Assembly (NCBI GenBank): GCA_017501645.1 | Contig: JAFVWN010000065.1 | Span: forward strand, 17,240 to 81,239 | Direction: 5' to 3' | Length of the DNA: 64,000 nt | From: Clostridia bacterium | Lineage (GTDB): Bacteria > Bacillota > Clostridia > Christensenellales > UBA1242 | Shown: in pieces, positions 1,047-64,000 of the stretch | Numbering within the stretch: the stretch's first letter is position 1 | Layout of the letters: each line of letters begins with the position of its first letter | Notes under the pieces: model-generated | The model's input: only the letters and a program-made list of their open reading frames with translations | The model's database searches: none | What the model was told of the DNA's origin: nothing | Position numbers and translations under genes: made by a program

Positions 1047-1230
1047 ACAATTCATCATTTATCATTCTTCTTTCATCACTGCAAAACTGCCAAGTTTTGG
1101 CTTATACTCTCCCCCTTTGGTGCAAGCACCACCTTTCCCCCGTCCGGGGGCACCAAGATAATTGAAGTTTGTTTTTAATTGTATATTAACATTCCCTAAT
1201 TCATCATTCTTCATTTTTCATTCATCATTG
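1047..1230. repeat. Downstream cassette copy 1: heptamer tandem repeats (TCATTCA/TCATTCT-like) flanking a GC-rich palindromic core (1108-1159)
   Basis: Homologous, in the same orientation, to 63257-63437; core ctccccctttggtg..caccacctttcccccgtccgggg.caccaagat. Confidence 0.85.
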
Positions 1231-1234
1231 TATA

Positions 1235-1262
1235 AAAAAATAGAGGTCACCCTCTATTTTTT
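1235..1262 (-). terminator. Hairpin abutting the stop codon of the DGR-like target gene (terminator, possibly also a DGR homing hairpin)
   Basis: aaaaaatagagg-tcac-cctctatttttt, 4-nt loop. Confidence 0.7.
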
Positions 1263-2742
1263 ATATACTAATTCTTAATGCCGGACGCACGCCGTAATTG
1301 CAGTCCGTGACATAATAAGTGGTGGAGAGGAAGCCACCAGCAGTAACATCGCAGGCAGAAGAAGCCAACGGACCCGCCGAACGGGTCCAGTAATAGCAGG
1401 TTCCTCCACTTGGATGTGTTGCTGTTACATATGAGGTGTTTGTAAACTTATAACAATAATTCCCTAACGTAAAGTCCGTTGGACTACATAGCATTTTTGT
1501 GTTAGTGTTTGTAAATAATCCTGCACTATTATAGTAGTCCCAATATGATAAACAATATATTTTATCTTCGGTTGTAACACCTGTCGTGTTGCTTGTTGCC
1601 GTATCATAATTTCCGGTTATATTATTCCCCACTGTCGTTGTAGATATTAATTCTTGCTCGCCACTTGTAAATGCACTTGTATAGAATGTGCCATTGAGCC
1701 ATGTTCGAAGTTCGCTGTTTATCCATTGATTTGGGTCATCACTGGTTCCCGCTGTTCCGTCTGCATCTGTGTTACTTGTATAAAATCGTATATCCGCTGT
1801 TAGTGCTAAATAACTCATTATTTCAAGTTCGCTATCACTTCCGCTTGTATATGCTTCATAGTTTAAGATTATCCACCTTATTGGTTCTACTTTGAACCAT
1901 GTATATTCTGTTGTACTAGATGACCCCACAGTTTCCCCGTTTAAATATGTGTAACTGCTACTATACACATATCTATTTCCTCTTGCATATATGTTTCCAT
2001 CTGTATACTGATATGCTTGCCATGTCCTTGTTCTTACTGTATATGTATTCACTGCTGTTGGACTATTACTATTATACCAACTCTCTAAGGTTGTATTCAT
2101 GCTTGAACCAACATATGTTTGCGGATAGTTTCCAAAATCCACATAGTACATATTCAATCCAGCACTTGGATTTCCCACAGCAATAGTGTCCGTTGATATT
2201 GACACATTTGTTACTATCTCTACACTATTCTCATCTATTACTGTATCTGCACTTATATTTACTATTGCTCCTTCTTCTGCATAAATTGATGGACCATAAT
2301 TTGCAGTGTTTCCTGTTATTGTCCCTGCATTTATATTACAAGTTCCTCCAGATGACACATATATTGCTCCTCCATAAGTTGCACTACAACCTGTTAGTGT
2401 TCCTCCTTCCATTGTAAAAGTCGCTCCCTCACTTATAAAGATTGCTCCTCCATATGTGTTTGTATGGTTTTGTATTGTTCCTCCAATCATTATAAATGTT
2501 GAGTCTGGCTCAAGAAACACTGCTCCGCCTTTATAACTTGTGCTTTGTCCTTGTGCAGGAGATGTTTCATCTGCCATTGCAAAATAATTTGCTTCATATC
2601 TTGTTTTATTGACTGGAACCTTTTCTTTTTCTACTTTTTCAGTTTTATTACCGTTTGAAATCATAAGAAAAGACATACATAAACTTGTTATGCACATTAT
2701 TGGTAATATTATTGTTAATAATATCTTAAATCTTTTCTTCAT
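1261..2742 (-). CDS. Secreted/membrane-anchored surface protein: GGA(I/V)-repeat beta-helix-like stalk plus C-terminal DUF6273-like (C-type-lectin-like) domain; probable DGR target
   Basis: N-terminal signal/TM segment; GGAVF/GGAIF/GGAIY repeats; VEPIRW, SELRTWLN..FY..AF, EDKIYCLS, YWTRSA...GVRPALRI motifs. Confidence 0.8.
   Translation of the reverse strand: MKKRFKILLTIILPIMCITSLCMSFLMISNGNKTEKVEKEKVPVNKTRYEANYFAMADETSPAQGQSTSYKGGAVFLEPDSTFIMIGGTIQNHTNTYGGAIFISEGATFTMEGGTLTGCSATYGGAIYVSSGGTCNINAGTITGNTANYGPSIYAEEGAIVNISADTVIDENSVEIVTNVSISTDTIAVGNPSAGLNMYYVDFGNYPQTYVGSSMNTTLESWYNSNSPTAVNTYTVRTRTWQAYQYTDGNIYARGNRYVYSSSYTYLNGETVGSSSTTEYTWFKVEPIRWIILNYEAYTSGSDSELEIMSYLALTADIRFYTSNTDADGTAGTSDDPNQWINSELRTWLNGTFYTSAFTSGEQELISTTTVGNNITGNYDTATSNTTGVTTEDKIYCLSYWDYYNSAGLFTNTNTKMLCSPTDFTLGNYCYKFTNTSYVTATHPSGGTCYYWTRSAGPLASSACDVTAGGFLSTTYYVTDCNYGVRPALRISI
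1279..1395 (-). other. Putative DGR variable region VR1
   Basis: Versus 63560-63676: no indels, 33 mismatches in 117 nt, 29 at codon positions 1-2 with third base conserved. Confidence 0.8.
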
Positions 2743-2806
2743 TCTCGCCCCCTATTAAATGGCTCAATGTAATTGGAATTAGTTTTTACATTTATGCAAT
2801 AAATAT

Positions 2807-2915
2807 CCGCAATTCATCATTTATCATTCTTCATTCATCACTGTTTTTAAACCCTTCGGGTTTTGTTCCTGCGGAAAGCGAAAACAAGTTTCGCCTTCAT
2901 TCTTCATTCATCATT
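2807..2915. repeat. Triple-hairpin element (2849-2894) flanked by heptamer repeats, in the presumptive 5' leader of 1261-2742
   Basis: aaaccc-ttc-gggttt / ttcc-tgc-ggaa / gcgaaa-acaag-tttcgc; close homolog at 63400-63510. Confidence 0.85.
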
Positions 2916-2955
2916 AAAAAAACAAATTATTTTTGCTTTCTCTCTTCCTGATACT

Positions 2956-2987
2956 AGTCTACCCCCCCCCCCCCGATTTTTTGTCAA
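2956..2987 (-). promoter_or_regulatory. sigmaA-type promoter with G13 tract in the spacer (candidate phase-variable promoter)
   Basis: Minus strand TTGACA-aaaaatc-G13-TAGACT; spacer 20 nt. Confidence 0.75.
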
Positions 2988-3065
2988 GCAATTTAAGTTC
3001 TTATTTCAAAAATATTGAATAAAAACATTATGTTTTTTACAAACTATCATAAAAAGGAGATAATT

Positions 3066-3353
3066 ATGTTTGATTTAAAATGTAAAAGACAAGGTTGTAA
3101 ATTCAATCAAAATTGTAACTGCACAGCACACAATGTAAAAGTTGACAACACCACTAAATGTGAAACCTATGAAGACAGTAAAAATCCACAAATGCAACAA
3201 GATAAAATACCTCAACCACCAACAAGAAAAAACATCTGTGTTTCTTGTGATGCAAAATGTCTTTTTAATCAAGACCACACCTGCAAAGCCAATGGAATTA
3301 CAGTAATAACAAATGACTTTGCCCCTGAATGCTGTACATTTCTACCAAAATAA
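3066..3353 (+). CDS. Small Cys-rich protein with two DUF1540-like repeats
   Basis: Two C..(x)C.FN...C.A..(I/V).V......C.T(Y/F) units; AAGGAG RBS. Confidence 0.7.
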   Translation: MFDLKCKRQGCKFNQNCNCTAHNVKVDNTTKCETYEDSKNPQMQQDKIPQPPTRKNICVSCDAKCLFNQDHTCKANGITVITNDFAPECCTFLPK

Positions 3354-3421
3354 AAAGAGCAATTGCTCTTTTTTTGTTACTTTTTTGTTTAAAAATCAAC
3401 AACATTGTGCAAAAATTATAT

Positions 3422-6052: not shown

Positions 6053-6472
6053 ATGGAATTTGAAAAATATGCCACAGCATTAACCCTTTACAGCAAACAC
6101 ATTGCTCAACACGAAAAAAATTGTCAACAATTAACAACTGCCAAAATTTTCGCAGAGCTTTGTACTCAAAGAGTTTTAAATGCTAAAGGCAGAGAAAAAA
6201 CTAAACAAATAAAAATTGCCAAACAAAAACAAGAACAATACGGAGATGTTGTTGAAAATTATAATTCAACATATGAAAAATGTAGAGGTTGTCTACTTCT
6301 TGCAACTAAATGTGCACCATCTTCAAAAACAAAACAAGATGTTCTTGACACTCTTACATCTTTAGACTCTAAACATTTAAGTTATAGAGATGTTTGTTCT
6401 ATTGTTTCTCGTTTCCTTGAAGCAGATATGGCAAATCTTAAAGAAACTGAAGAAGAACCTGCAAATGCATAA
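6053..6472 (+). CDS. Hypothetical helical protein
   Basis: ORF with purine-rich RBS, upstream TTGACT and downstream hairpin; no recognised motif; start uncertain (6008 possible). Confidence 0.55.
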   Translation: MEFEKYATALTLYSKHIAQHEKNCQQLTTAKIFAELCTQRVLNAKGREKTKQIKIAKQKQEQYGDVVENYNSTYEKCRGCLLLATKCAPSSKTKQDVLDTLTSLDSKHLSYRDVCSIVSRFLEADMANLKETEEEPANA

Positions 6473-8690: not shown

Positions 8691-9299
8691 TTAAAACATA
8701 TAACTATCTTTTTTCTCAACCTGATTTTTTACAACTTTAATGCCTCGCTTTTTAAACTCTTTGTCCACTATTTTTTCGAGTTTTTTAACAGCTTTATCCA
8801 TATCATCTGTATAAATAACATAGTCGTAGTGCTTTCGTTGAGCATTTTCATAATCGACTCTATCAAAAAGCCTGATGGCAATTGTTTGTTCGTTTTCTCC
8901 CCTCTCTCTAAGTCTATCAAACAATATACCACGATTTTTTACAGTAACATATACACCAACAATGTCTATGTCTCTTTTTCTCATTTCCTTATAACTGTCA
9001 ACATCAATATCCTTGATTGCAACACAACCATCTTTGATTGCATTTTCATAAGAATCAAGACCTGTACCATAATATTGTTGGTCTTTATGAACTTTATTAT
9101 ATTCTAAGAAAAAGTTTTCCTTAATTTTTTCTTCAAATTGACTTTTTGTTAGATAAATATATGTTCCATTAACTTCTTTTTTTCTTAATTTTCTAGTTGT
9201 ATATGATTGAATTTTCCTCACATTTGGAAATCTTTCAATAACACTATAAAGTAATGGTGTTTTTCCTGAACCAGATGGCCCTGACATTATAATAAACAT
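8691..9299 (-). CDS. gmk: Guanylate kinase
   Basis: SGPSGSGKT P-loop, SYTTR..R..E..G..Y, YYGT, RL.ERG. Confidence 0.85.
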   Translation of the reverse strand: MFIIMSGPSGSGKTPLLYSVIERFPNVRKIQSYTTRKLRKKEVNGTYIYLTKSQFEEKIKENFFLEYNKVHKDQQYYGTGLDSYENAIKDGCVAIKDIDVDSYKEMRKRDIDIVGVYVTVKNRGILFDRLRERGENEQTIAIRLFDRVDYENAQRKHYDYVIYTDDMDKAVKKLEKIVDKEFKKRGIKVVKNQVEKKDSYMF

Positions 9300-9301
9300 A
9301 T

Positions 9302-11062
9302 TTACTCCTTTGTTAGTTCTTCAAATTCTTTTAATAGTGACTTATAAAGCTCAAATGCACCTTGTAATGTTTGTTTCTTGGTTAAATCCACACCAACAGT
9401 CTTTAAAAGTTCTACTGGAGGTATACTACTTCCTGCAGATAAAAAGTTTTTGTATTTTTTCAAATACTCTTTATCCCCTTTTAAAATGTTTTGAGCGATT
9501 GTACAAGCAGAAATAAAGCCTGTAGAATACTTATAAACATAATATGGTCTATAAAAGTGAGGAATCCTGCTCCATTCGTAGCAAGAATATTCTGTAGCCT
9601 TTGCAACATCTCCAAAATAAGAAGCTTGCAATTCTTTGTATTTTTCGTTTAAATCCTCTACCAAAATAGGTTTCTTTTGCTCAACTGTCGTATACACATA
9701 ATGTTCAAACTCGCTAAACATTGTTTGCCTGTATAAAGTTGTATAAAAATTGCTCAAAAGTTGGTGCACAAAATACAACTTTTCTTGCTTTTCTTTTGCA
9801 TTATTAAGCATAAAGTTAACAAGTAAAATCTCATTTACTATAGATGCAACTTCACAAGCAAAAATACTTGAATCGCTTTTTGTAATTGGCTGAGTATTGT
9901 CTGTATAATAGCTATGCATTGCGTGACCAAGCTCGTGAGCCAATGTTGAAACGCTTGAAAATTCATCTGTGTGGTTAAGAAGCACATATGGATGATATCC
10001 ATATACGCCCACGCAGAAACCACCACTGGTTTTTGCTGGCTTTTCATAAACATCAATCCAACCCCCAGCTATTGCCTTTTCCAAAACGCTGGTATAATCT
10101 TTGCCCATAATTTGAAGAGCTTCTAGAACAATTTTTGTGGCCTCTTCATAGGTGTATTTCTTATCTACTTTACCCATTTCTAGATAGTTGTCATAATAAT
10201 AAAAATCTTTTATTCCTAAAGCTTTTTTCTTAACCCTTTCAAACTCATAAAATAATGGAATATTCTCTCTTACCGTTTCAATAAGTGTTTTAAGCACTTT
10301 GGGAGAGGTTTTATCATTATTACAACATCTATCAAGAACAGACTTATACTTTTTAATGTTGGTAAAAAACATTGTCTCTTGCACATCATTTAAGTAAAGC
10401 CCACCAAGTGTATAGTTAAAGTCCGCAAAAGCTTTATGCATCATATTATATGCCTGTTTTCTAACTTTTGCATCCTCATCTCTAATTAGCACCGAATATG
10501 TTGCGTGAGTTAATTTTACTTTTCCATTTTTTGTTTTAATGTCACCAAACTTCAAGTCTATATCATTAAAATTATCAAAAGTTTCACCAAAGCCACCAAA
10601 TGATGCATTTTTATTAAGAACAGCAGATATTTTTTCGTTCAAAATATGCTTCTTGTCTTTCACTATATCTTCAAGCATTATATTATATTCTTCAAAATCT
10701 TTCTGTTTAGAAAACTCTAGTAAAACCTCTTTCTTATTTGAAGAAATCTCAGGAGTAATAAAGCTTAATTTTGGAGCAATTTCTTGTGCAAAAATTTGAT
10801 ACTCACTCTCAATTTTTCTAGAAAATAAATCTTTTCCATCAAGAGACTTTCTTAAAAATAAATAACAACCAAACCTGGTTTCCAACTCTTCTAGTTCCTT
10901 TGCCTCTTTTAAGTAAGAAAGTAGTCCTTGTCTTGTTTTCAATTTGCCTTTATAATTTAGCATACCTATTTGAATGGTTTTAATTTTTTCAAAATCGGCA
11001 TATACTTCATCTTCTGTTTTATATAAATCTCTTAAGTCCCAATCTGTTTTAATTTTATTCAT
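9302..11062 (-). CDS. pepF: Oligoendopeptidase F (M3B)
   Basis: WDL.DLY, WIDVYE...K.SG, HPYVLLN, TLAHELGHAMHS, EVAS, WSRIPHFY. Confidence 0.93.
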   Translation of the reverse strand: MNKIKTDWDLRDLYKTEDEVYADFEKIKTIQIGMLNYKGKLKTRQGLLSYLKEAKELEELETRFGCYLFLRKSLDGKDLFSRKIESEYQIFAQEIAPKLSFITPEISSNKKEVLLEFSKQKDFEEYNIMLEDIVKDKKHILNEKISAVLNKNASFGGFGETFDNFNDIDLKFGDIKTKNGKVKLTHATYSVLIRDEDAKVRKQAYNMMHKAFADFNYTLGGLYLNDVQETMFFTNIKKYKSVLDRCCNNDKTSPKVLKTLIETVRENIPLFYEFERVKKKALGIKDFYYYDNYLEMGKVDKKYTYEEATKIVLEALQIMGKDYTSVLEKAIAGGWIDVYEKPAKTSGGFCVGVYGYHPYVLLNHTDEFSSVSTLAHELGHAMHSYYTDNTQPITKSDSSIFACEVASIVNEILLVNFMLNNAKEKQEKLYFVHQLLSNFYTTLYRQTMFSEFEHYVYTTVEQKKPILVEDLNEKYKELQASYFGDVAKATEYSCYEWSRIPHFYRPYYVYKYSTGFISACTIAQNILKGDKEYLKKYKNFLSAGSSIPPVELLKTVGVDLTKKQTLQGAFELYKSLLKEFEELTKE

Positions 11063-14246: not shown

Positions 14247-15188
14247 TTAATTATTAAAAATTTCTCTTAAAATTTGTTTTACTGCATCAATTCTTTCTTC
14301 TTTTAAGAGCTTTGCCCTAGTTTCAGGAGCGACTTTAATCTTCTTTAAATAAAATGCGATATGAGTTCTCATATTCAAAACAACAAACTTTTCGCTATAA
14401 TGTTTTAAGAGGTAATCAATATGAAAAAAGATATCTTGAAGCTTGTTTGTTGGCATTTTATTTTCTAATATTTCCGCAAAAACTTCAGGTCTTCCAAGAG
14501 CCCCTCTTGCAATCATAACCCCGTCAGCATTTGTTACTTTTAAAATGTTTTCGTAACTTTCTCTATCAACACAATCGCCACTTACAATCACAGGTATAGA
14601 CACTGCTTCTTTAACAGCTTTTGCAATCATTAAATCCGCCTTTCCGCTATAACCTTGAACCTTTGTTCTTGCGTGTATTGTAATAGCACTTGCCCCTGCC
14701 TTTTCCATAGCTTTTGCAAACTCTACGGCATTAATAGAATTTTCATCAATTCCACTTCTAAACTTAACAGTAATTGGTCTGTCAGTAGCTCTTACACAAG
14801 CTTTTACAATTTCACTAGCCTTATCAATATCCGCCATAAGTGCAGAGCCTTCCCCATTACCATAAATCTTAGGCGCAGGACACCCCATATTTATATCAAT
14901 AATATCAAATTTTTCTAAGCAAGGAAGTTTAATCGCTTCATAAAAAACTTCTGGCTCACTTCCAAAAAGTTGAACAGCACAAGGCTCTTCATTTTTTGCA
15001 GTAATAAGTAAATCTTCAGTTTTTTTGTTACCATATGTTAGAGCTTTCGCACTCACCATTTCAGTAAAAGTAAGCCCTGCACCATATTTTTTTGCAAGAC
15101 ATCTAAAACCAACATCACTATAACCCGCAATTGGTGCAAGCATTAGATTGTTTTTTAATTCTACATTTTTAATTATTAGTTTTTTCAT
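14247..15188 (-). CDS. dusB: tRNA-dihydrouridine synthase B
   Basis: LAP.AG.SD..FR, TEMVSA, QLFGS, DINMGCP, HART, GVMIARGA. Confidence 0.93.
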   Translation of the reverse strand: MKKLIIKNVELKNNLMLAPIAGYSDVGFRCLAKKYGAGLTFTEMVSAKALTYGNKKTEDLLITAKNEEPCAVQLFGSEPEVFYEAIKLPCLEKFDIIDINMGCPAPKIYGNGEGSALMADIDKASEIVKACVRATDRPITVKFRSGIDENSINAVEFAKAMEKAGASAITIHARTKVQGYSGKADLMIAKAVKEAVSIPVIVSGDCVDRESYENILKVTNADGVMIARGALGRPEVFAEILENKMPTNKLQDIFFHIDYLLKHYSEKFVVLNMRTHIAFYLKKIKVAPETRAKLLKEERIDAVKQILREIFNN

Positions 15189-15228
15189 AAATATATTATA
15201 ACAAATTAGTTATAACAATGAAACATTT

Positions 15229-20348: not shown

Positions 20349-20491
20349 TCCTTTTTTCCGCCTTTTTCTTTAGTTTAAACCTTTACACATATTATTATAT
20401 ATAATATTTTCAAAATCTCCAAATAAAATTAAACACTATTTTAATTTTTTTTTATTTTCTCCTCTATGCAACTTTTCCTAGTATAAAGACA

Positions 20492-20665
20492 TTATATTTT
20501 GAAAAGCTACGCTTTTAGTTCCTACGGAAGACAAAACTCTGTTTTGTGATTCATCATTACTATACCCCAAGCGGAGCAACTTTATATTTGAAAAGCTTCG
20601 CTTTTAGTTCCTACGGAAAGCGAAAACAAGTTTCGCCTTCATTCATCATTTTTCATTCATCATTG
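20492..20665. repeat. Two tandem copies of the triple-hairpin element (20502-20547, 20591-20636) plus heptamer repeats
   Basis: aaaagc-tac/ttc-gctttt, ttcc-tac-ggaa, acaaaac-tct-gttttgt or gcgaaa-acaag-tttcgc. Confidence 0.85.
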
Positions 20666-20668: not shown

Positions 20669-20702
20669 AGTCTACCCCCCCCCAAAAAAAATTTTTTATC
20701 AA
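20669..20702 (-). promoter_or_regulatory. Homolog of the poly-G promoter (A5-T8-G9 spacer)
   Basis: Minus strand TTGATA-aaaaa-T8-G9-TAGACT, spacer 22 nt; flanks ctagtcta and tcaagc....taagtt shared with 2954-2999. Confidence 0.65.
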
Positions 20703-35545: not shown

Positions 35546-35586
35546 TCTCCTTTCATTTGAAATAGATTAATGTGTGTTTCCACTTT

Positions 35587-35946: not shown

Positions 35947-35980
35947 AAATGATGAGGGTATAAAGGTTTAAGCACTCGAA

Positions 35981-41983: not shown

Positions 41984-41995
41984 TTTTGCTCCCTT

Positions 41996-49534: not shown

Positions 49535-49537
49535 AAC

Positions 49538-50101
49538 CTAATTAACTTTTTGCATTATATTTGAATATGACTCACCCTCAAGAAACATAACACCTGCGGT
49601 TTCACCCTTATCAATTCCCACTTCAATATCTTTATCAAAATGAATTTTCGATAAAACATAATCAGCTAAATCCATAAACTCACTAGGTGGAGCGCCAGCC
49701 CCTATTTTTAACCTAGCAAATTCAGGTGTACCAAGCTCTCTCACAATACTTTTAAGCCCATTGTGAGTCCCCGCACTGCCTTTTTCTCGAAGTCTTACAA
49801 CTCCTCTTGGCAAGTCAATATCATCATTAATTATAAGCAAATCTTTAGTTATGTCAATATCAAATTTTTTAACAAGGCTTTTAACCGCAATTCCACTATT
49901 ATTCATATAAGTTGTTGGTTTTGCAATAATTATTTTTTCGCCTTTATAATTAGCCTCACCTATAAAACTGTTACACACATTCTTTTTTATTGCAACACCT
50001 AGCTTATCTGCAATATTATCAACAACAATAAACCCTAAATTATGCACAGTTTTTTCATATTCTTTACCAATATTACCAAGCCCAATCAATAATTTTGCCA
50101 T
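49538..50101 (-). CDS. pth: Peptidyl-tRNA hydrolase
   Basis: IGLGN.G..Y..T.HN.GF, KP.TYMN.SG, GSAGTHNGLKS. Confidence 0.95.
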   Translation of the reverse strand: MAKLLIGLGNIGKEYEKTVHNLGFIVVDNIADKLGVAIKKNVCNSFIGEANYKGEKIIIAKPTTYMNNSGIAVKSLVKKFDIDITKDLLIINDDIDLPRGVVRLREKGSAGTHNGLKSIVRELGTPEFARLKIGAGAPPSEFMDLADYVLSKIHFDKDIEVGIDKGETAGVMFLEGESYSNIMQKVN

Positions 50102-51237
50102 TATTTATCGCCCGCCTTTAAAACCTCGCCCATCTTTATGCAAACATCCTCATTCACTTTAACGCCCTGCATTAAAGTTTCCATATCTTCAAGCTTTGCA
50201 CCCTTTTGCATAACACAAGGTTTCTCTTCTGTCCCAACAATTTTACAGTTATCTCCAATACTCACTCTTTCGTCTGCATTAAGGTAATTGATAATTGTGT
50301 TTTTGCCAACCATTGAATATTCTTCAATGATTGCGTTTGAGATTATTGAGTCTTCTCCAATTTCAACCCCCTCTTTAACAGCAGTTTGAGATAAAAGTTT
50401 TGCACCGTTCCTAATTTTTGCTTTTTCCATCACAATACCGCCATCTATGTATGCACCATAAATCTTTGCGCCAGAGAAAATTTTCGCATTAATAAGAGTT
50501 GAACCAGCACCAATAAAAGCGTTTTCTTGAACATCAGTATCTCCTGTCATTCTTACAAACGGTTCAATAACTGTTCCTGCCCCAATTGAAACATTAGCAT
50601 CAATATATGTACTGTCAGGAGCTTTGAAATATACGCCATTTTGCATATGGAAACTTACAATTCTATTTTTCAAAATTTCGCTGATAATATATAACTGCTT
50701 ATATGAAACGGCCATCATAAAATCTTCTTCTTCAAAATAATAAGTTGAAGGAGCATAAACCTCATCTACTCTTTTGATATACTCATTCTTAAACACATAT
50801 CCACGAGTAAGTTTACAAACATTAAGACCTTTAGCTTTTGCGAAATCTAAAATGTTTAAAATATTAGCTCTTGTAACAAGAGGTGTATCGCTATACAAGA
50901 CAAGAGTATATTCCGTATCTTTCAAATACGGTTTTATTGCTTTTAAAATATTCTCTCCCTCATTATACTTAATGCAAGTTGGCACGCTAGGACAAGCCCT
51001 TACAACATATTGAAACATAGGGTTACCCAATAAATCAACATTATAAGAACCATCTTTTGCTGGCATTTGTTCACTATCCACCAAAAGGACAATGCAAGTA
51101 ACACTTACATCTTCATTATCTCTTTTAATCTTTTCAACCTTAGTCAAAAGTTTTTCTTGCTTTTCCACATCAAAAAGCGCTGAAGACATTTCTTCAGTTT
51201 TAAATTTTGTTTCTGTTAAATTATATATCTTTTCCAT
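50101..51237 (-). CDS. Degenerate GlmU-like protein (eroded nucleotidyltransferase domain plus hexapeptide beta-helix)
   Basis: G.PM..YV, VLYSDTPL, HM.NGV....P.STYID..V.IG..TVIEP; lacks LAAG.GTRM; occupies glmU position before pth. Confidence 0.65.
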   Translation of the reverse strand: MEKIYNLTETKFKTEEMSSALFDVEKQEKLLTKVEKIKRDNEDVSVTCIVLLVDSEQMPAKDGSYNVDLLGNPMFQYVVRACPSVPTCIKYNEGENILKAIKPYLKDTEYTLVLYSDTPLVTRANILNILDFAKAKGLNVCKLTRGYVFKNEYIKRVDEVYAPSTYYFEEEDFMMAVSYKQLYIISEILKNRIVSFHMQNGVYFKAPDSTYIDANVSIGAGTVIEPFVRMTGDTDVQENAFIGAGSTLINAKIFSGAKIYGAYIDGGIVMEKAKIRNGAKLLSQTAVKEGVEIGEDSIISNAIIEEYSMVGKNTIINYLNADERVSIGDNCKIVGTEEKPCVMQKGAKLEDMETLMQGVKVNEDVCIKMGEVLKAGDK

Positions 51238-51276
51238 AACTTAATTTTAAATAATTATTATGGCTTTGTCAATTTT

Positions 51277-51744
51277 TTATAATACTTCTTTAATTTTTTT
51301 GCGTTTTGACTTAAAATAATCACTCACAAGATTAGAACATTCTTCTTCAAACAAGCCTTTTTCTATTTCGCACTTATGATTTAATTCTGCTCTTGCAATA
51401 ATTTCTTCACAGTCAATAGACCCTTCTTTGTTTATGCTCGCACCAAAATAAACCTTTTTTATTCTTGCATTAAGAATTGCCCCAAAACACATTAAACAAG
51501 GCTCTAGCGTTACATAGAGTTCACAATCTATAAGCCTAAAATCTTTAAATTTTTTACAAGCCTTTTTAATACAAATTATTTCTGCGTGTGCAGTTGCATC
51601 TCTATCTTCTTGTCTTTTGTTATAAGCCCTTGCAATAATCTTCCCCTGACTAACAAGCACAGCACCAACAGGAACTTCATCTTTCAAAAGTCCTTTCTTT
51701 GCTTCCTTTATTGCTTCTTTCATAAACCTTTCTTGTTCTGTCAT
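51277..51744 (-). CDS. tadA: tRNA adenosine(34) deaminase
   Basis: EVPVGAV, AHAEI, YVTLEPCLMC. Confidence 0.9.
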   Translation of the reverse strand: MTEQERFMKEAIKEAKKGLLKDEVPVGAVLVSQGKIIARAYNKRQEDRDATAHAEIICIKKACKKFKDFRLIDCELYVTLEPCLMCFGAILNARIKKVYFGASINKEGSIDCEEIIARAELNHKCEIEKGLFEEECSNLVSDYFKSKRKKIKEVL

Positions 51745-52600
51745 CCTCAAATTCCTTTTGCACCTTTGCAAGTAATCTTATGATATTTTTATTTCTCTTA
51801 TATATTTGTGATATTTCACTTTCTTGTACAGGATGTCTTAGACTATCTTTCCCAACCTCAATTGTTACTGATGGGATACTATATCTTTCGACACACCAAT
51901 CTTTATATCCTCCAGCACTCACTTTTTCAGTGTTTACAACTTTATATCGTAAACTCTTTGCAATAATCTTTGCAATTCGACCATCTCTTTTTATGTTTTC
52001 AGCCTTATTAAAAAACTGATAGTATATCTCTTGTCCCTTTGAATGATAACTTATTGTAAATATTGGTTTTTCTTGACTTGTTAACAAACTAAGAGCCTTT
52101 ACTTCTGGTTCGCTCATTGGCGAGTTCCCAATAAAACCATTATTAGAAGGCTTTGTTTTGTTTTCAACACCAGTCCCCCACTTTGCATCAAAATTTGTGT
52201 TTAAATCTACACCTCTTGCGTTTGCCTTATATAAAGAAAAATCAGTTCCGCCATTTATATTCTTTAAAAACTTCCAACTTTCTTTTGGTGCACTTTTCAA
52301 CCCCGAATAGCAAAGTTCAACCCCATCTGGATTAACCATAGGTACAAAAATTATGTTTGGTACACCCATTGTTTTTAGTTTGTTAAAATCTCTTTCTGTA
52401 TCTTTTATAAGCATACAAATTAGGCTTGTTGTAATATGTTCTCTTGCGTGAATAGCACCTTGAATGATTACTGTATTTTTTGACGAAAAATTAAACTTAA
52501 CCGCATAAATTGGCCTTTTAAAAACAGACTCGCCAATAATAAATATTTTTGACCTTTTTGTATTATTATTCAAAAATTCTTTAAGAGTATTATAATCCAT
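51677..52600 (-). CDS. M14 zinc carboxypeptidase (gamma-D-Glu-mDAP peptidase-like)
   Basis: HARE, PMVNPDG, KANARGVDLN.NF, SEPE, SYHS.G, T.EVG. Confidence 0.88.
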   Translation of the reverse strand: MDYNTLKEFLNNNTKRSKIFIIGESVFKRPIYAVKFNFSSKNTVIIQGAIHAREHITTSLICMLIKDTERDFNKLKTMGVPNIIFVPMVNPDGVELCYSGLKSAPKESWKFLKNINGGTDFSLYKANARGVDLNTNFDAKWGTGVENKTKPSNNGFIGNSPMSEPEVKALSLLTSQEKPIFTISYHSKGQEIYYQFFNKAENIKRDGRIAKIIAKSLRYKVVNTEKVSAGGYKDWCVERYSIPSVTIEVGKDSLRHPVQESEISQIYKRNKNIIRLLAKVQKEFEDDRTRKVYERSNKGSKERTFER

Positions 52601-52645
52601 TATTTCCCTCATTTTAAGTTATGAGAGAAACAAATAGATTTGTTA

Positions 52646-53710
52646 CTACATTAACCCAGCAACAAGTGTTAATATCCAGTTTATAACTAAATAAGCACCG
52701 GCAACCACAAATAAAATTATTGTAACAGTGTTGCCATCTTTTTCTTGTTTCTTTTCTTGAGGCACTTCTTCAACTTTTTTCAAGTTTTCAATTTCTTCAA
52801 CTGTCAAATTTTCTTTATCCAAAAGAGCAAGTGTCTTTTGTTCTTTTCCCTCTTTTATCTTTTTTAATCCCTTTACACAAAGCCAAACCAAAGCCCCGCC
52901 AGCAGCAGCCATAATTAAGCTTGTTACAAAAGAAACACCGATTTGCATCCAAGTGTAAGACACAGTTTCAACGCTTTCAACCACACCTGAAGCAGATGTA
53001 ATATATAAAGATGTCAATGCTACAAAATTATTTAAAAAGTGCATTATTACAGGAACCCAAAGAGTACCTGAATAAATAAATGCATAACCAAGAACTATTC
53101 CTAATATGAACTGATGAACTGTTTGGTCAGGCCCTCCGTGCATCAACATAAATATCAAAGCGCTAAGCATAACCGCTTTATGTTTTCCAATATCTTTAAG
53201 ACCACTCAAAATCAAGCCTCTAAATAGCAATTCTTCAAAAAGAGCAGGACAAATAGCCATTAAAAACACATACAAAAGATATATGCCAAAATTAGGAATC
53301 ACAATATTTCCCACCATTTGTTTATAGCCTAGTTTTTCTAAAAAAGCAACAAAAGTGTTTGTAAGTCCAGTGAACGCAAATAAGCATATAAACGCTAGAG
53401 CAACCGCTAAAAGAGTGCTTTTCCAATCCAACTTTTTATCAAGTTTAGTTGCTTTAATAAACTCAACATTCCTAATTTTTGCAGTTGTCAAAACCGCAAA
53501 AGCAAAAACCGCCTCAACCAAGAATGATAAAAGCACAGCCACTATAAAATTGCCTTTAAAAGATGTAGGCAACAATGTATAAATCAACTCAAAAACAAAC
53601 TGAAACAATACGAAAAATATGCAACCTAAAGAACTATCCATCAAATGAAATTTTGTATTCTTTAATCTTTTTTCAGGCTTTTGAAAAACCAATTCTTCAT
53701 TACTACTCAT
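52646..53710 (-). CDS. CPBP (CAAX/Abi) intramembrane metalloprotease
   Basis: EELLFRG, F.L.H, HFLNN; multi-TM. Confidence 0.9.
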   Translation of the reverse strand: MSSNEELVFQKPEKRLKNTKFHLMDSSLGCIFFVLFQFVFELIYTLLPTSFKGNFIVAVLLSFLVEAVFAFAVLTTAKIRNVEFIKATKLDKKLDWKSTLLAVALAFICLFAFTGLTNTFVAFLEKLGYKQMVGNIVIPNFGIYLLYVFLMAICPALFEELLFRGLILSGLKDIGKHKAVMLSALIFMLMHGGPDQTVHQFILGIVLGYAFIYSGTLWVPVIMHFLNNFVALTSLYITSASGVVESVETVSYTWMQIGVSFVTSLIMAAAGGALVWLCVKGLKKIKEGKEQKTLALLDKENLTVEEIENLKKVEEVPQEKKQEKDGNTVTIILFVVAGAYLVINWILTLVAGLM

Positions 53711-54503
53711 TTTCTTCTCCAAAATAGAAATTATTTCCAGGCCTATCTTGCCTTGAATATCTTATAAAAATGTCTTTTTCAAGTTGATAGCCAGCATCTT
53801 CTAAAGCTCTTGCATTTGTTACATATGCCTGCTCTAAAGTATTTGAGTTTTCACTTATATGCGAAAGAACAAAATACTTTGTTCCAAATCTTGCCAAATC
53901 TACAACAATTTGTGATGCTTGTTCGTTCGACAAATGTCCACTATCACCCGCAATTCTCTTTTTTATAATATAAGGATACTGACAATTCATAAGCATTTTC
54001 TTATCGTGGTTTGATTCAATATAAACTAAAGCACTTCCACGAATAAGCTCAAATGCCTGCCTTGGCAAATATCCAAGGTCTGTTGCAAATGAAACTTTCT
54101 TGCCTTTATATTCAAACATATATCCCAAGCAACTAGAACTATCGTGAGGCAGAACGAACGGAGTAACCCTGATATCTGCAAGACCGAACGAATAGTCATT
54201 TATTATTGAAATTTTATCCTTTATTTCCTCGGGAATAGTATCCTTTATTTCCTCAATCACGCTTGCGTGAGCATATCCTCTAGCCTTGTACTTTTTTAGA
54301 AAATTCACAAAACCTTTTATATGGTCACTATGCTCGTGAGTAATCAAAATAGCATCAATATCTTCAGCCTTTTCGTTAATAAGCTCAAGCCTTCTCTCTG
54401 TTTCTTTTACAGTAAAACCAATATCAAGAAGAATCCTAAACCCACCTGCTTGAATAAAACTGCTATTACCTTTACTTCCCGACCCTAAATTAATTACTCT
54501 CAT
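53703..54503 (-). CDS. MBL-fold metallo-hydrolase (YycJ/WalJ-like)
   Basis: SGSKGN, THEHSDH, ATDLG, ESNHD, GHLSN, HIS..N. Confidence 0.9.
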   Translation of the reverse strand: MRVINLGSGSKGNSSFIQAGGFRILLDIGFTVKETERRLELINEKAEDIDAILITHEHSDHIKGFVNFLKKYKARGYAHASVIEEIKDTIPEEIKDKISIINDYSFGLADIRVTPFVLPHDSSSCLGYMFEYKGKKVSFATDLGYLPRQAFELIRGSALVYIESNHDKKMLMNCQYPYIIKKRIAGDSGHLSNEQASQIVVDLARFGTKYFVLSHISENSNTLEQAYVTNARALEDAGYQLEKDIFIRYSRQDRPGNNFYFGEENE

Positions 54504-54571
54504 TTTTCCTTCCTTTGTTACAAATAATACCACATTTTTTTTATAAGAGCAAACTCTTTAATAATCTTTAT

Positions 54572-56071
54572 TTAAAATGCACCAATAATTGTTTTACCTT
54601 GAAGCCAACTATCAAATAATCCCTCCACATCCTTTCCTGATGCTTTTTTCACTGATACTATAAAATCATCAGTGGTTGCAACTTTAAACTTGTATTTTTT
54701 ATAATACCGCTTAAACCCTTTTATCAACCTTTCTTTTCCAATAACCTGTCTAACATTGTCAAACATCAAGACCCCTTTCACATAAATCATATAGGAGTAT
54801 TCATAATCACCAGCATATTCGTTTACAGAAAGAAGCATACTTGTGTTCAACTTTTGCTCAATAGATTTTACAATGTCTGCATACAATGTATACCCCGCAA
54901 AAGCTTCACTAATAAGACTTTCATAACTCACACCAAACTCTTTATATTCCTCAAAAAACAGCGCCGTACTATATTCTGCTAAACTTTCATCAAGCCAAGC
55001 TTCTTTAATCTCATTATTTCCAACAACAGCATACCACCATTGATGAGCAATTTCGTGTACTATAACTTTTGCGTAATCTAGTTCGCTTTCCATTGTATCA
55101 CTCACAATAACAACTGCAGGATATTCCATACCTCCGTGCAAAAATGGAGCTTTTACAACATCAAGTTTTTTGTATGGGTAGTCACCAAAAATTTTACAAA
55201 AAAACTTAACCGCTTTAACACTAACATCTAAGCAATAATCAATGTTTTCATCTTCTTCATAACCCGTATAAGAAACTAATAATTCGTCTATTTTTTTACT
55301 TTTTGTTTTACTGTTTTTCGTCAACATTATTGCAAAATCTCGAACGGCTTTTGCTTTTATTTTATCTTGTTTTACATCCCCAATTTCTTTAATCCTTTTT
55401 GCATTGCCTGTTGACGACAAAAAATAATCTTTACCATAGGTAAAGTCTACTTCAAAATTTGCAATTTGGCTATAAAACGGGTCTCCGGTGCTATAATAAG
55501 GTTCAATAACATACTCCCCTCTTTCATACACAGCAATTATAGGAAACCAGTTCCCCAAATTTACACTCTCGTTTAAATATCCAAGCCTGTGAGCATTTTC
55601 CGCAAGTCTTAAAACAAACTCAATATTTATTAAAACCTTTTCATCTGGTTCAAGTTCTTTTTCTAATGACACTTCAAGAGCATTATCATCTTTTCCAACA
55701 ATAGAAAATTTTGCCTCTTCACCACCTATTTTTACGGATTTTATCTCCATATCACCATAACTTTTGCCATTAGGAAAACATTTTGCCTCGTTGATTGAAG
55801 TATATGGCTTAACACTAGCATCTTCACGAAAAGCTCTGCCATAAAGATTGAAACAAACTGTGTTTAATATGACATCTGTGTTATTAACAAAAACAACATC
55901 TTCTGTTGCGGAAATTGTCATTTCATCATCTAAAACTGCAGTTATTTTATATGAAGAAATCCCTTTACTAGCTTTTTCAAGTTCTTTATACGGACTACAC
56001 CCAACAAAAAGACTTAAAATAAAAATAAAAGATACACAAATACTAAAAAAGTTAACAATTCTTTTTTTCAT
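54572..56071 (-). CDS. M1 family aminopeptidase lipoprotein
   Basis: Lipobox FVGC; GGMEYP; HEIAHQWW; WLDE.LAEY; Y.KG. Confidence 0.9.
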   Translation of the reverse strand: MKKRIVNFFSICVSFIFILSLFVGCSPYKELEKASKGISSYKITAVLDDEMTISATEDVVFVNNTDVILNTVCFNLYGRAFREDASVKPYTSINEAKCFPNGKSYGDMEIKSVKIGGEEAKFSIVGKDDNALEVSLEKELEPDEKVLINIEFVLRLAENAHRLGYLNESVNLGNWFPIIAVYERGEYVIEPYYSTGDPFYSQIANFEVDFTYGKDYFLSSTGNAKRIKEIGDVKQDKIKAKAVRDFAIMLTKNSKTKSKKIDELLVSYTGYEEDENIDYCLDVSVKAVKFFCKIFGDYPYKKLDVVKAPFLHGGMEYPAVVIVSDTMESELDYAKVIVHEIAHQWWYAVVGNNEIKEAWLDESLAEYSTALFFEEYKEFGVSYESLISEAFAGYTLYADIVKSIEQKLNTSMLLSVNEYAGDYEYSYMIYVKGVLMFDNVRQVIGKERLIKGFKRYYKKYKFKVATTDDFIVSVKKASGKDVEGLFDSWLQGKTIIGAF

Positions 56072-62168: not shown

Positions 62169-62171
62169 TTT

Positions 62172-63167
62172 ATGGTAGAATTTGAAGGTAAAGAAAAAAG
62201 AATGCCATCAATCAATGAGGCTCTTAAAAAATATGGTTTTAAAAACCTTGAAGAAGCTGAGGCTCTTACTCTTGAAAAAGGCATTAATGTACATGATGTT
62301 GTAAAAGGTATTCAAACAATTTGTTTTGAAAACGCAGTTTGGGCTTACACTCTTGGTACTGCTATTGCAATTAAAGCTGGTGCTAAAAATGCAGTAGAAG
62401 CAGCAAAATATATTGGTGAAGGTCTTCAAGCATTCTGCGTACACGGTTCTGTTGCGGACCATAGAAAAGTTGGTATTGGTCACGGTAACCTTGGTGCTAT
62501 GCTTCTTGACGAACAAACTAAATGTTTCTGTTTCCTAGCAGGTCACGAAAGCTTTGCTGCTGCTGAAGGTGCTATTGGTATTGCATCAACAGCAAATAAA
62601 GCAAGAAAAACTCCACTTAAGGTTATCTTAAATGGTCTTGGAAAAGATGCTGCATACATCATTTCAAGAATTAATGGTTTCACTTATGTGAAGACTGAAT
62701 ATGATTTTGCAAATGCAAAACTTAACATTATTGAAGAAAAAGCTTTCTCTGATGGCGAAAGAGCTAAAGTTAAAGTTTATGGTGCAAATGATGTTAACGA
62801 AGGTGTTGCTATTATGGAACACGAACAAGTTGATGTTTCTATCACTGGTAACTCTACTAACCCTACTCGTTTCCAACACCCAGTAGCAGGTACTTATAAA
62901 AAGAATTGTTACGAAACTGGAAAAGCATATTTCTCAGTTGCTAGTGGTGGCGGTACAGGTCGTACTCTTCACCCAGACAATGTTGCTGCCGGTCCTGCAT
63001 CTTATGGTATGACTGATACTATGGGAAGAATGCACGGAGATGCTCAATTTGCTGGTTCTTCATCAGTTCCTGCACATGTTGATATGATGGGATTCATTGG
63101 TATGGGTAACAACCCAATGGTAGGAGCAACAGTTGCTCTTGCAGTTGCAGTTGACCTAGCAAAATAA
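62172..63167 (+). CDS. GGGtGRT family protein (uncharacterised)
   Basis: Literal SGGGTGRTLHPDN motif; GHESFAAAEGA; GNSTNPTRFQH. Confidence 0.92.
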   Translation: MVEFEGKEKRMPSINEALKKYGFKNLEEAEALTLEKGINVHDVVKGIQTICFENAVWAYTLGTAIAIKAGAKNAVEAAKYIGEGLQAFCVHGSVADHRKVGIGHGNLGAMLLDEQTKCFCFLAGHESFAAAEGAIGIASTANKARKTPLKVILNGLGKDAAYIISRINGFTYVKTEYDFANAKLNIIEEKAFSDGERAKVKVYGANDVNEGVAIMEHEQVDVSITGNSTNPTRFQHPVAGTYKKNCYETGKAYFSVASGGGTGRTLHPDNVAAGPASYGMTDTMGRMHGDAQFAGSSSVPAHVDMMGFIGMGNNPMVGATVALAVAVDLAK

Positions 63168-63182
63168 ATAAAACATAAACAC

Positions 63183-63209
63183 AAAAAGACGGAAGGTTTC
63201 CGTCTTTTT
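63183..63209 (+). terminator. Intrinsic terminator after GGGtGRT gene
   Basis: caaaaagacggaa-gg-tttccgtctttttg inverted repeat. Confidence 0.75.
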
Positions 63210-63256
63210 GTTTATGCACCAAATATTGTTTATCGTGAGCCTCGCTCATGTATTCC

Positions 63257-63517
63257 ACAATTCATCATTTTTCATTCGTCATTAAAAATTGCCAAATTTT
63301 TATTTACATTCTCCCCCTTTGGTGACACAGCCACCACCTTTCCCCCGTCCGGGGACACCAAGATTGTTTGGTTTTTATTTTTCACATTTGTGTTGACATT
63401 CCGCAATTCATCATTTTTCATTCTTCATTCATCATTGTTTCTAAACCCCTTCGGGTTTTGTTCCTACGGAAAGCAAAACTCTGTTTTGCCTTCATTCTTC
63501 ATTCTTCATTCTTCATT
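63257..63517. repeat. Downstream cassette copy 2 (GC core 63310-63364) joined to a triple-hairpin element (63443-63489) and heptamer repeats
   Basis: Homologous to both 1047-1230 and 2807-2915. Confidence 0.85.
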
Positions 63518-63541
63518 ATAAAAAAGCCCTGTGGGGCTTTT

Positions 63542-64000
63542 TTATATACTAATTCTTAAAGCGGGACGCACGCCGCGAGAGTAGTTCGCGACACTATCAC
63601 TGTAGTGGATGAGTCCATTATTACTAACATAGCAGGCACTAGAAGCCGACGAGCCCGCCGAACGGGTCCAGTAACGGCAGGTTCCTCCACTTGGATATGT
63701 TGCTGTTACATATGATGTACTCGTATATTTATAACAATAATTCCCTAACGCAAAGTCCGTTGGACTACATAGTCTTTTTGTGCTAGTGCCTGTAAATAAT
63801 CCAGCACTACTATGGTAATCCCAGCATGATAATAAGTATACTTTATCTTCGGTTGCAACACCTGTAGTGTTGTTTGTCGCTGGATCATAATTTCCGGTTA
63901 TATTATTTCCCACTGTCGTTGTAGATATTATTTCTTGCTCGTCACTTTTGAACGCACTTGTATAGAATGTGCTATTGAGCCATATTCGAAGTTCGCTGTT
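63542..64000 (-). CDS. 3' end of a paralog of 1261-2742 (DUF6273-like domain); probable second DGR target, truncated by window edge
   Basis: Frame open to window end; SELRIWLN, EDKVYLLS, YWTRSAG...GVRPALRISI. Confidence 0.85.
   Translation of the reverse strand, partial: NSELRIWLNSTFYTSAFKSDEQEIISTTTVGNNITGNYDPATNNTTGVATEDKVYLLSCWDYHSSAGLFTGTSTKRLCSPTDFALGNYCYKYTSTSYVTATYPSGGTCRYWTRSAGSSASSACYVSNNGLIHYSDSVANYSRGVRPALRISI
63560..63676 (-). other. Putative DGR variable region VR2
   Basis: See VR1; retains AAT AAT and AAC codons where VR1 has GCT GGT and GAC. Confidence 0.8.

Follow-up and report, generated by a model that had tools for sequence, protein, structure and literature searches.

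Modular surface-protein genes with candidate layers of variation dispersed through a small gut Clostridia genome

Several kinds of genomic device that vary bacterial surface proteins or lie near their genes are relevant to the loci discussed here. Homopolymers in the promoter spacer are proven switches, as typified by the poly-A tracts of Mycoplasma hyorhinis vlp and the poly-G/C tracts of Neisseria porA and opc. The chlamydial Pmp paralogues carry repeated GGA(I/L/V) motifs that fold into a beta-helix, and some of them are phase-variable via poly-G. Modular, hairpin-forming intergenic repeats with a variable number of internal units, often located in transcribed leaders, are represented by BOX of Streptococcus pneumoniae and REP/BIME of enterobacteria. 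Bentley et al. 2007 (PMC1797815) describe the neisserial NIMEs as arrays of diverse short repeat modules with a short conserved linker near surface-protein genes, propose that they promote recombination varying the neighbouring genes, note their co-occurrence with homopolymer phase variation and state that such arrays had not been seen outside Neisseria. In two further reports, DUF6273 is a DGR target with a C-lectin-like fold, and multi-target DGRs with DUF6273 or C-type-lectin-like targets are presented from Faecalibacterium phages and as 'tentaclins' (PMC10743442, PMC11792537).

Against this background, we analyzed a window of 64,000 nt (contig C65:17240-81239) from G000, an animal-gut member of the Clostridia (1.46 Mb, 32% GC, 97.9% complete). 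The best overall explanation, which we consider probable, is that three loci in the window belong to a single secreted surface-protein family, expanded and modular, on which three kinds of variation are layered. A first-pass annotation had listed parts shared by these loci; direct reading of the sequence confirmed that the three carry all of them and that the parts recur genome-wide.

All three genes lie on the minus strand. P0001 of locus 1 (1261-2742) encodes a signal/anchor helix, a GGAxY beta-solenoid stalk and a DUF6273 tail, as judged from sequence, Pfam and an AlphaFold model in which residues 70-165 are confidently predicted as a solenoid of short strands. P0002 of locus 2 (18375-20348) combines a signal peptide and a GGA(I/V)Y stalk with BspA-type LRRs (Pfam LRR_5; 72-nt period, 6.2 copies), and the tail of P0003 in locus 3 (63542-64000) is again DUF6273 by sequence and Pfam, its gene extending past the end of both the window and the contig. 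Enumeration of family members across the genome bore out the large modular surface-protein repertoire that had been envisaged: about 49 ORFs match the signal peptide plus GGAxY stalk (BLASTP E<=1e-5) and, at 40,879 aa in total, take up 8.4% of the genome; by BLASTP and Pfam, about 45 of these match the BspA-type LRR region and eight carry a DUF6273 tail. Each gene would specify an N-terminal signal or anchor, a beta-solenoid stalk and a putative binding head made of either leucine-rich repeats or the lectin-like DUF6273 domain. Copy-number change of the LRRs, proposed earlier as a diversifier, was not observed. The family resembles Pmp in its paralogous GGA-motif members, its solenoid stalk and the poly-G on some members, with the POMP_repeat model falling just below its cut-off (14 versus 15 bits); unlike Pmp, its members are not autotransporters and their heads are LRR or lectin-like domains.

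These genes appear to travel as cassettes, each comprising a promoter, a repeat-rich leader, the gene, a terminator and sometimes a downstream repeat array, that have been inserted between conserved housekeeping genes. The genes g89-g391-small64-g235-g198 are contiguous in 10/10 congeners, and in G000 locus 2 stands between small64 and g235. Similarly, rplI and DUF1540 are adjacent in 8/10 congeners; in the other two, no DUF1540 was found in the flanking sequence retrieved. Because the sites of loci 1 and 2 are empty in eight and ten of the ten congeners, respectively, both are, by synteny, insertions, as the first-pass annotation had held.

The locus 1 promoter (2956-2987, minus strand) consists of TTGACA, 7 nt, a G13 tract (2962-2974) and TAGACT, with a spacer of 20 nt. 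At locus 2, a distal promoter-like box (20669-20702, minus strand) is made of TTGATA, A5T8 (13 nt), G9 (20675-20683) and TAGACT; its 22-nt spacer is too long for a sigma-A promoter, and the gene also has a consensus-like proximal box, TTGGAG-17-TATAAT (20394-20422, minus strand), common to many family members. Given that spacer and the second promoter, the distal box may be dead. Genome-wide, there are 12 G/C runs of at least nine (G9-13) against about 0.2 expected by chance (by arithmetic from GC content and genome size); 11 are placed in the spacer of a TTGACA-N-Gn-TA promoter, with spacer lengths of 17 (two), 18 (three), 19 (two), 20 (two), 22 and 25 nt. The remaining run is located 7 nt 5' of a start codon. 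Signal-peptide or lipoprotein genes lie downstream of ten of these tracts and contig ends downstream of two. The poly-G box also drives unrelated lipoproteins, and at least three unrelated protein families share it. Like vlp and porA/opc, the system places a putatively mutable homopolymer between the -35 and -10 boxes before several surface lipoprotein or adhesin genes, with spacer lengths scattered around the 17-nt optimum; unlike them, it uses G9-13 in a Clostridia genome of 32% GC, extends across those unrelated families and recurs, as TTGACA-N1-13-G>=9-TA, in 20/61 genomes of the taxonomic family (reversed control, zero in every genome), with switching being putative. Replication slippage in the tract would alter spacer length and thereby turn transcription up or down. 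What stands of the earlier slippage proposal is this family-wide architecture and one length difference: at locus 1 the tract is 2 nt shorter (spacer 18 nt) in otherwise identical 1471-nt assembled contigs from runs X2 and X3, which look like one strain given their same-size contigs. The expression effect is inferred; among the RNA runs searched, none holds the region.

The tails of the DUF6273 subfamily point to a further layer. A DGR signature is present in five of these tails, including the locus 1 VR of 23 codons before GVRPALRISI (1294-1362, minus strand) and the VR in P0003 (63575-63643, minus strand). Among the five paralogues, variable sites at codon positions 1, 2 and 3 number 15/21, 15/21 and 10/21 in the VR, and 73, 58 and 140 of 274 in the rest of the gene; only 1/23 of the invariant VR columns is A. 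In the congener G008, a target, DUF559, a bAvd-like gene, the TR and the RT all occur on one contig; several targets are served by the one TR, which is rich in AAY codons, and the TR/VR differences, examined by eye across the homologous core, fall at TR adenines. Further, four G000 VRs share 18 identical nt at their 5' end with the G008 TR and three G008 VRs. Because this 5' motif deviates at three non-A positions at locus 1, that VR copy may no longer be homed. We retain, of the proposed retro-mutagenesis, a true DGR-type signature and a complete DGR beside a homologue in G008, while the RT and TR are absent from the G000 assembly: it yields no RVT_1 match, nothing resembling an additional TR copy and, in tblastn with the RT and the Avd-like protein of G008 as queries, no match (best E 0.63). 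Hence, any current DGR activity in G000 is putative. By the proposed mechanism, the terminal VR of about 70 nt would be rewritten by a DGR in trans from one template. The system is like the DUF6273 DGRs in the VR at the DUF6273 C-terminus, the AAY-templated NNY codon pattern and the single TR for several targets (in the congener); it differs from the phage examples in that the targets are chromosomal surface proteins fused to the GGAxY stalk and scattered as cassettes rather than phage tail proteins, and from the known DUF6273 DGRs in lacking RT and TR in the assembly.

Together, the heptamer, hairpin and GC modules make up a family of mosaic repeats, dispersed and shuffled. Downstream of locus 1, between the P0001 terminator and rplI, a heptamer run, a GC cassette (the A module, ~1098-1166) and a second heptamer run make up an array at 1047-1240, which has blastn copies on many contigs and a match to the covariance model R1 at C65:18341-18408. 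The locus 1 leader array (2814-2925), between promoter and start codon, holds a single triple-hairpin (T) unit between heptamers; the array of locus 2 (20470-20665), between the distal and proximal promoters, combines heptamers with a pair of T units and a CCCAAGCGGAGC unit; and the locus 3 downstream array (63255-63520), flanked by two convergent terminators, runs from heptamers through an A module (~63300-63368), heptamers and a T unit to heptamers. The third hairpin of a T unit persists with heptamers as an isolated remnant at 28846-28903, and intergenic self-comparison found no further copies in the window, in agreement with the first-pass annotation. Genome-wide, the motifs, with linker runs of the TTCATCA/TTCTTCA type, gave 143 matches, 117 of them outside ORF calls and one a known false positive. 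A hairpin of at least 5 bp occurs in 46 of the 50 T units at position 1 (34% in shuffles) and in 42 at position 3 (24% in shuffles), built from several different stems in 15 combinations; the supposed central hairpin is instead a 4-bp palindrome, TTCC-N3-GGAA, invariant in about 50 units. Copies of the A module number 24 in G000, 54 in G008 and 27 in G005, with modest covariation (3/11 pairs change on both sides). Within the window, Rfam returned no family at its gathering score except tmRNA.

At least one module is found in 44 of 786 intergenic regions, and a family gene adjoins 26/44 of these versus 56/742 of those without modules (Fisher OR 17.7, p=1.4e-16, a p that overstates the case as paralogues are not independent and gene calls are crude); the arrays lie upstream of a family gene in 20/43 cases and downstream in 6/39. 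The modules are thus strongly enriched beside family genes, as had been claimed, yet not exclusive to them. The arrays are like NIMEs in their diverse short modules with a conserved linker, their co-occurrence with homopolymer tracts, their position beside surface-protein genes and the shuffling of content between copies; unlike NIMEs, to which they have no sequence relation, their linker is a direct heptamer run and not the 20-bp inverted dRS3, their modules are small hairpins and 5' leaders contain many of the arrays. The host, too, is unlike Neisseria, being a Gram-positive-type gut anaerobe not known as naturally transformable. With BOX and REP/BIME they share the modular hairpin-forming architecture and the frequent location within transcribed leaders, but neither sequence nor an adjacent RAYT-type transposase, and they are strongly biased to one gene family.

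The role of the modules in variation is only inferred. The short hairpin modules joined by heptamer runs, which flank the genes mostly on the 5' side and have been shuffled among paralogues, are most likely homology patches for recombining promoters, leaders and genes, together with transcribed leader structures. An unlikely alternative is that they are selfish or neutral repeats of the MITE/REP kind, or leader DNA co-duplicated with the paralogues, with no part in variation, their enrichment arising because upstream regions share ancestry and tolerate insertions. Their occurrence in both orientations, upstream of rplI and, in at least 7 of the 44 repeat-bearing regions, between unrelated genes away from contig ends would suit this view, as would ordinary folding energies (z -0.2 to -2.0), the many arrays after terminators, which would not be transcribed, and the outcome of a search of relatives with a 196-nt T-array query, with full matches in G000 only and three short ones (27-31 nt) in one further genome of 31. 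However, no transposase adjoins the modules, the single IS200-like gene being without such repeats beside it; hairpin potential is maintained across different stems; the central palindrome is invariant; three species retain the A module, some of whose changes are compensatory; and the odds ratio of 18 beside family genes remains.

As for the poly-G runs, it is quite improbable that they are fixed promoter elements, such as a binding site or structural element, or assembly artefacts rather than mutable switches: the sole length difference does come from short-read contigs, long G runs are prone to error and runs X1 and X2 have the same locus 2 tract, but paralogous promoters with near-identical flanks differ in length (G12 versus G13 in the two C61 copies, G10-G13 elsewhere), other genomes of the family likewise hold copies that differ in length, and the position between -35 and -10 agrees with proven switches in other bacteria. 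The balance tips less clearly against an extinct DGR layer in G000, with the tails as fossils of a lost retroelement and the diversity among the five paralogues static. The missing RT, TR and Avd in so complete an assembly, the dnaG-adjacent site that holds the cassette in G008 and is empty in G000, an RT in only 1/11 genomes of the genus and the drifted flank of the locus 1 VR fit such a loss. Against it, four VRs retain the 18-nt flank identical to the congener TR though the proteins are only about 44-55% identical, suggesting recent homing, and the G008 cassette occupies a 7.4-kb contig bounded by repeats, a type of fragment that binning loses; in three runs, contigs break over positions 1138-1385, where the VR and array of locus 1 lie, although repeats would also cause such breaks.

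Taken together, the variable-repertoire interpretation of the first-pass annotation stands with respect to the repertoire, cassette insertion, poly-G architecture, DGR signature and repeat enrichment, and not with respect to the RT and TR, LRR change and module exclusivity. A VR tail behind a poly-G promoter is shown at locus 1 only, other DUF6273 paralogues using a non-poly-G promoter, the TTGGAG-17-TATAAT box. Each layer is of a kind known elsewhere (SSR promoters, DGRs, NIME/BOX-like arrays), whereas their combination is new, as is the lineage. Known tricks of variation that had so far not been reported side by side in this group are brought together in an uncultured gut bacterium, which devotes about one-twelfth of a tiny genome to one family of surface proteins.

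The best-supported reading of these loci is a modular, dispersed repertoire of surface proteins on which several mechanisms of variation are stacked. It is encoded by a 1.46 Mb genome (67 contigs, 97.9% complete, GC ~32%) to which the closest named records are MAGs of uncultured Clostridia sampled in goat rumen and other guts; the sequencing runs containing window DNA are likewise animal gut metagenomes, with no RNA run among them. The gene of locus 1 (P0001; 1261-2742, minus strand) codes for a 493 aa protein in which a signal/anchor helix and GGAxY repeats are followed by a DUF6273 tail; that of locus 2 (P0002; 18375-20348, minus strand) shares this N-terminus and continues into BspA-type LRRs in a tandem repeat structure (LRR_5, PF13306: 311.6 bits against a Pfam cut-off of 27.7); at locus 3 (P0003; 63542-64000, minus strand) only the DUF6273 tail of a paralogue is present, running off the contig. 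Upon direct reading of the sequence, we found each of the parts that the first-pass annotation had listed in its place, and a self-comparison of the window agrees that the non-coding modules are confined therein to the three loci and a remnant at 28.85 kb.

BLASTP searches with the two N-termini against our ORF set recovered 49 ORFs of this stalk family in the genome, several of them truncated by contig ends, with a combined length of 40,879 aa (8.4% of the genome); the LRR region is matched by 45 of these and the DUF6273 part by 8. Matches to P0001 are present in all ten other species of the genus, and a related-locus search with the same protein in genome contigs gave 29 pattern matches, none of which was confirmed. 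An AlphaFold model of P0001 (built from an 11-row alignment; mean pLDDT 61) is confident only in a short-strand solenoid (residues 70-165) and a middle domain, with the C-terminus at pLDDT 30-38, such that the model does not confirm a lectin-like fold for the tail. A Foldseek search of the model against the PDB gave no match at E<=0.001, and its best-ranked rows were beta-helix tailspikes and antifreeze proteins (E ~0.2 to 1); structure search hence leaves both folds, that of the stalk and that of the tail, unconfirmed. Comparison of the P0001 sequence with the PDB yielded nothing meaningful, and POMP_repeat (TIGR01376) reached 14.0 bits in P0002, just below the cut-off of 15, and had no match in P0001.

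The first putative layer of variation lies in the promoters. The genome contains 12 G/C runs of 9-13 nt, against a chance expectation of ~0.2 by our own arithmetic; 11 of these tracts are lodged between TTGACA-like and TAGAMT/TAAAAT boxes, and the twelfth is placed 7 nt ahead of a start codon. Ten tracts precede genes encoding signal or lipoprotein leaders (the other two face off contig ends): five belong to the stalk family, four code for collagen-repeat lipoproteins (one of which has a GDSL lipase domain as well, by Pfam), and one for an M6-peptidase-like lipoprotein with a G9 run 7 nt before its start codon. Lipoprotein sites of this kind are found on contigs 15 (26290-29014), 35 (33943-37218), 61 (47571-55098) and 59 (35866-38653). 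The spacers between the boxes measure 17 (two cases), 18 (three), 19 (two), 20 (two), 22 and 25 nt, and locus 1, with its spacer of 20 nt, is thus invisible to a standard promoter scan for 16-18 nt. Of 61 genomes from the taxonomic family, representing 58 genera, 20 (in 19 genera) contain the pattern, and the reversed control pattern matches in none of the 61. A homopolymer tract within the -35/-10 spacer is the arrangement of phase-variable promoters of the simple-sequence-repeat class, whose nearest examples are of the Mycoplasma vlp and Neisseria porA/opc type.

Tract lengths were compared across assembled contigs, as opposed to raw reads, of four metagenome runs. At locus 1 the tract is G13 in the genome under study versus G11 (spacer 18) in the contigs of two runs (X2 and X3), which over 1471 nt show no difference apart from the tract; these contigs are of the same lengths in both runs and may represent one strain. 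The tract of locus 2 showed no change in length in the contigs of the two runs compared for it (X1 and X2, the latter being one of the pair with G11 at locus 1). We infer that tract length switches expression. In two poly-G boxes (window 20669-20702 and contig 7, 321-366), with spacers of 22 and 25 nt, a T8-9 run adjoins the G run; these may be either dead promoters or doubly mutable ones.

A second box, TTGGAG-17-TATAAT, is conserved upstream of many family genes and is the alternative, non-poly-G promoter module of the family. It is consensus-like, with ~60 nt of shared flanks, and is present at locus 2 (20394-20422, minus strand), with further examples on contigs 24 (39900-40000) and 23 (15130-15260); it typically stands ~90 nt ahead of the start, and ~400 nt ahead in one LRR subfamily. 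Among the promoters of the DUF6273 paralogues, two have the poly-G box, two the TTGGAG-17-TATAAT box and one a G5 version, indicating that promoters and heads are freely combined; promoter and leader modules are also exchanged among paralogues.

The second putative layer comprises mosaic arrays, in which runs of TTCATCA/TTCTTCA-type heptamers flank three further modules, namely the triple-hairpin T unit with its invariant centre GTTCCTRCGGAA, the GC-rich A cassette (CCCCTTTGGTG..CACCACCTTTCCCC..GGGG) and the CCCAAGCGGAGC unit. Queries with these modules, which occur in both orientations, match ~25 contigs, often at their ends, and four strict motifs gave 143 matches distributed over 44 of the 786 intergenic regions of the genome. 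As the first-pass annotation had proposed, the repeats are associated with family genes: 26 of the 44 repeat-bearing regions neighbor one, as against 56 of the 742 regions devoid of repeats (odds ratio 17.7, p=1.4e-16, with the paralogues being non-independent and the gene calls crude). They are placed upstream of family genes in 20 of 43 cases and downstream in 6 of 39. The association is, however, not exclusive: of the remaining 18 regions, ~8 are at contig ends and, in three, nothing but a short ORF within the repeats intervenes before a family gene; at least seven truly lie between unrelated genes.

The T units (n=50) display several different first and third hairpins around a constant centre, in 15 combinations. 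A hairpin of >=5 bp is formed in 46 of 50 units at position 1 and in 42 of 50 at position 3, versus 34% and 24%, respectively, in shuffled sequences. These were counted directly since RNAalifold arrived at next to no consensus for 51 T units, owing to the differing sequences of the stems and a poor alignment; the folding stability of T and A, taken as single strands on both strands, is not distinctive (z -0.2 to -2.0). A reading of the loops as UNCG tetraloops was dropped, the central element being a 4-bp stem with a 3-nt loop. An Rfam 15 scan of the window at gathering scores matched none of the modules and detected only the tmRNA gene (35587-35946, minus strand; RF00023, 140 bits).

Among 31 relatives, a 196-nt T-array query proved essentially specific to the genome under study. 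With a covariance model, for which the support from covariation is modest, the A module was found in 24 copies here, in 54 and 27 copies in two congeners (G008 and G005, several of them adjoining P0001 homologues), in zero or one copy in the other eight congeners, and as a single weak match in 59 other genomes of the taxonomic family. A link to RAYT/REPIN elements was rejected: the sole Y1_Tnp gene (contig 17, 101-562) is IS200-like, stands at a contig start and has no mosaic modules beside it. Joints between contigs that pass over a single repeat unit (20493 to 20584) or portions of the LRR region were not counted as strain variation, as they may stem from paralogous loci, and gaps in contig coverage over window positions 1138-1385 were not taken as evidence. 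Further repeat families, with units containing ..CAGTTATTTATGTCTAATAAAC.. and ..CGCCGGTTCGGTAGAGAGGCGG.., adjoin the arrays on contigs 28 (9100-9500), 21 (62480-63000), 43 (41480-42100) and 24 (330-530), one of them within a DUF6273 paralogue's leader, and may constitute another structured leader or repeat class.

Comparison of the sites with those of congeners shows that the cassettes were inserted. The genes flanking locus 2 are adjacent in all ten congeners, separated by a gap of ~130-210 nt, and rplI and DUF1540, which flank locus 1, are neighbors in eight of the ten with nothing P0001-like between them. The expectation of empty sites in relatives was thus borne out for loci 1 and 2. Downstream of the GGGtGRT gene, the four genomes most closely related differ: in L021 a P0001-like gene stands in the matching convergent position, L019 and L020 have none within 4 kb, and L022 has none in the ~0.7 kb of flank present. 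No mobility genes flank the inserts. A second, divergent rplI-like ORF, with 41% identity to that of the window, is encoded on contig 41 (1224-1661). The clean empty sites in the congeners offer a rare chance to study the placement of such cassettes.

The third putative layer concerns the DUF6273 tails, which the first-pass annotation had taken to be of the DGR type. Five close paralogues with 80-86% DNA identity diverge sharply in the 21-23 codons directly before a conserved GGCGTGCGTCC..stop, a stretch that corresponds to 1294-1362 and 63575-63643 in the window and recurs at three other loci. In this variable region (VR), the sites varying at codon positions 1, 2 and 3 number 15, 15 and 10 of 21, as against 73, 58 and 140 of 274 in the remainder of the gene, and A is found in only one of its 23 invariant columns. 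This bias in codon position, together with the A-poor invariant columns, is the pattern expected of adenine-specific rewriting of AAY codons. The tails thereby present the configuration of a DGR target, i.e., a C-terminal VR with NNY variation in a C-lectin-like domain (DUF6273 by Pfam): PMC10743442 describes DUF6273 as C-lectin-like, and it is listed as a C-lectin-like DGR target in PMC10743442 and PMC11792537. DUF6273-targeting DGRs are the closest analogue of these tails.

The machinery was not recovered from the same genome: there is no RVT_1 match to a DGR-type RT, with the RT of a congener giving a best tblastn E of 0.63; blastn of the tails matches paralogous genes only and no non-coding copy resembling a template repeat (TR); and the accessory Avd gene has no match. 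The VR/TR flank pattern likewise had no matches in viral or in metagenome contigs, so that those collections yield no phage-borne or unbinned TR. A loose scan for a TR by AAY codons was discarded as far too permissive.

Such machinery is present in one of the 11 genomes of the genus, the congener G008, with an RT of 376 aa (RVT_1 E 5e-19). Along its 7.4-kb contig (contig 43, 1-7428), a P0001 homologue with DUF6273 is followed by a DUF559 gene, a bAvd-like gene (E 5e-6, 27 bits, below the 40-bit cut-off), the TR and the RT. The TR (~3333-3392) is rich in AAC/AAT and, as read by eye, differs from the VR (6109-6168) within the aligned core at adenines of the TR. At the 5' edge of the VR, 18 nt are identical in four VRs of the genome under study, the TR of the congener and three VRs of the latter; given that the proteins share only ~44-55% identity, this points to recent homing in both lineages. 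The site adjacent to dnaG, where the congener has its cassette, is empty in the genome under study. A DGR may still be active on these tails. In the congener, at least eight repeat families are interspersed with the cassette, among them ~11 A-module matches around every gene, and the endonuclease-like DUF559 gene is placed between the target and the Avd-like gene.

As to the role of the arrays, they combine a short conserved linker between diverse modules with enrichment beside surface-protein genes, and their nearest analogue is the neisserial NIME (PMC1797815). This is a likeness by analogy and not by homology, the linker here being a direct heptamer run in contrast to the inverted dRS3 of NIME. 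The arrays probably promote recombination, to which the swapping of promoter and leader modules among paralogues points indirectly, or shape leaders. A stronger proposal, which we regard as rather unlikely, is that they constitute a working device for recombination and regulation, as opposed to debris, coupled to a trans-acting, multi-target DGR. On this proposal, a dedicated recombinase or regulator would bind the invariant TTCC-N3-GGAA core (~50 copies) and the heptamer linkers would serve as cross-over points; core and linkers together would allow whole promoter-leader-gene cassettes to be copied into new intergenic sites and promoters, whether poly-G or constitutive, to be swapped among heads. 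If true, the NIME idea would have a Firmicute counterpart, and three stacked, separately tunable layers of surface variation would operate in a 1.4-Mb commensal.

A search of the literature, supplements aside, found no description of this combination of mechanisms in gut Clostridia. Pathogens and phages have supplied most of what is known of contingency loci, DGRs and mosaic repeat arrays; in this uncultured commensal of the herbivore gut, the three meet in a single protein family that occupies 8% of a small genome. The poly-G promoter design is shared by one in three of the genomes sampled from the taxonomic family. Such loci also pose a systematic problem for metagenome assembly, for they break contigs, and the core of a DGR may vanish in binning. 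Should both the switches and the retroelement be active, the investment of this lineage in surface variation would match that of Neisseria or Mycoplasma in scale, which would bear on how gut Clostridia with reduced genomes persist in the face of phages, immunity or shifting attachment targets.
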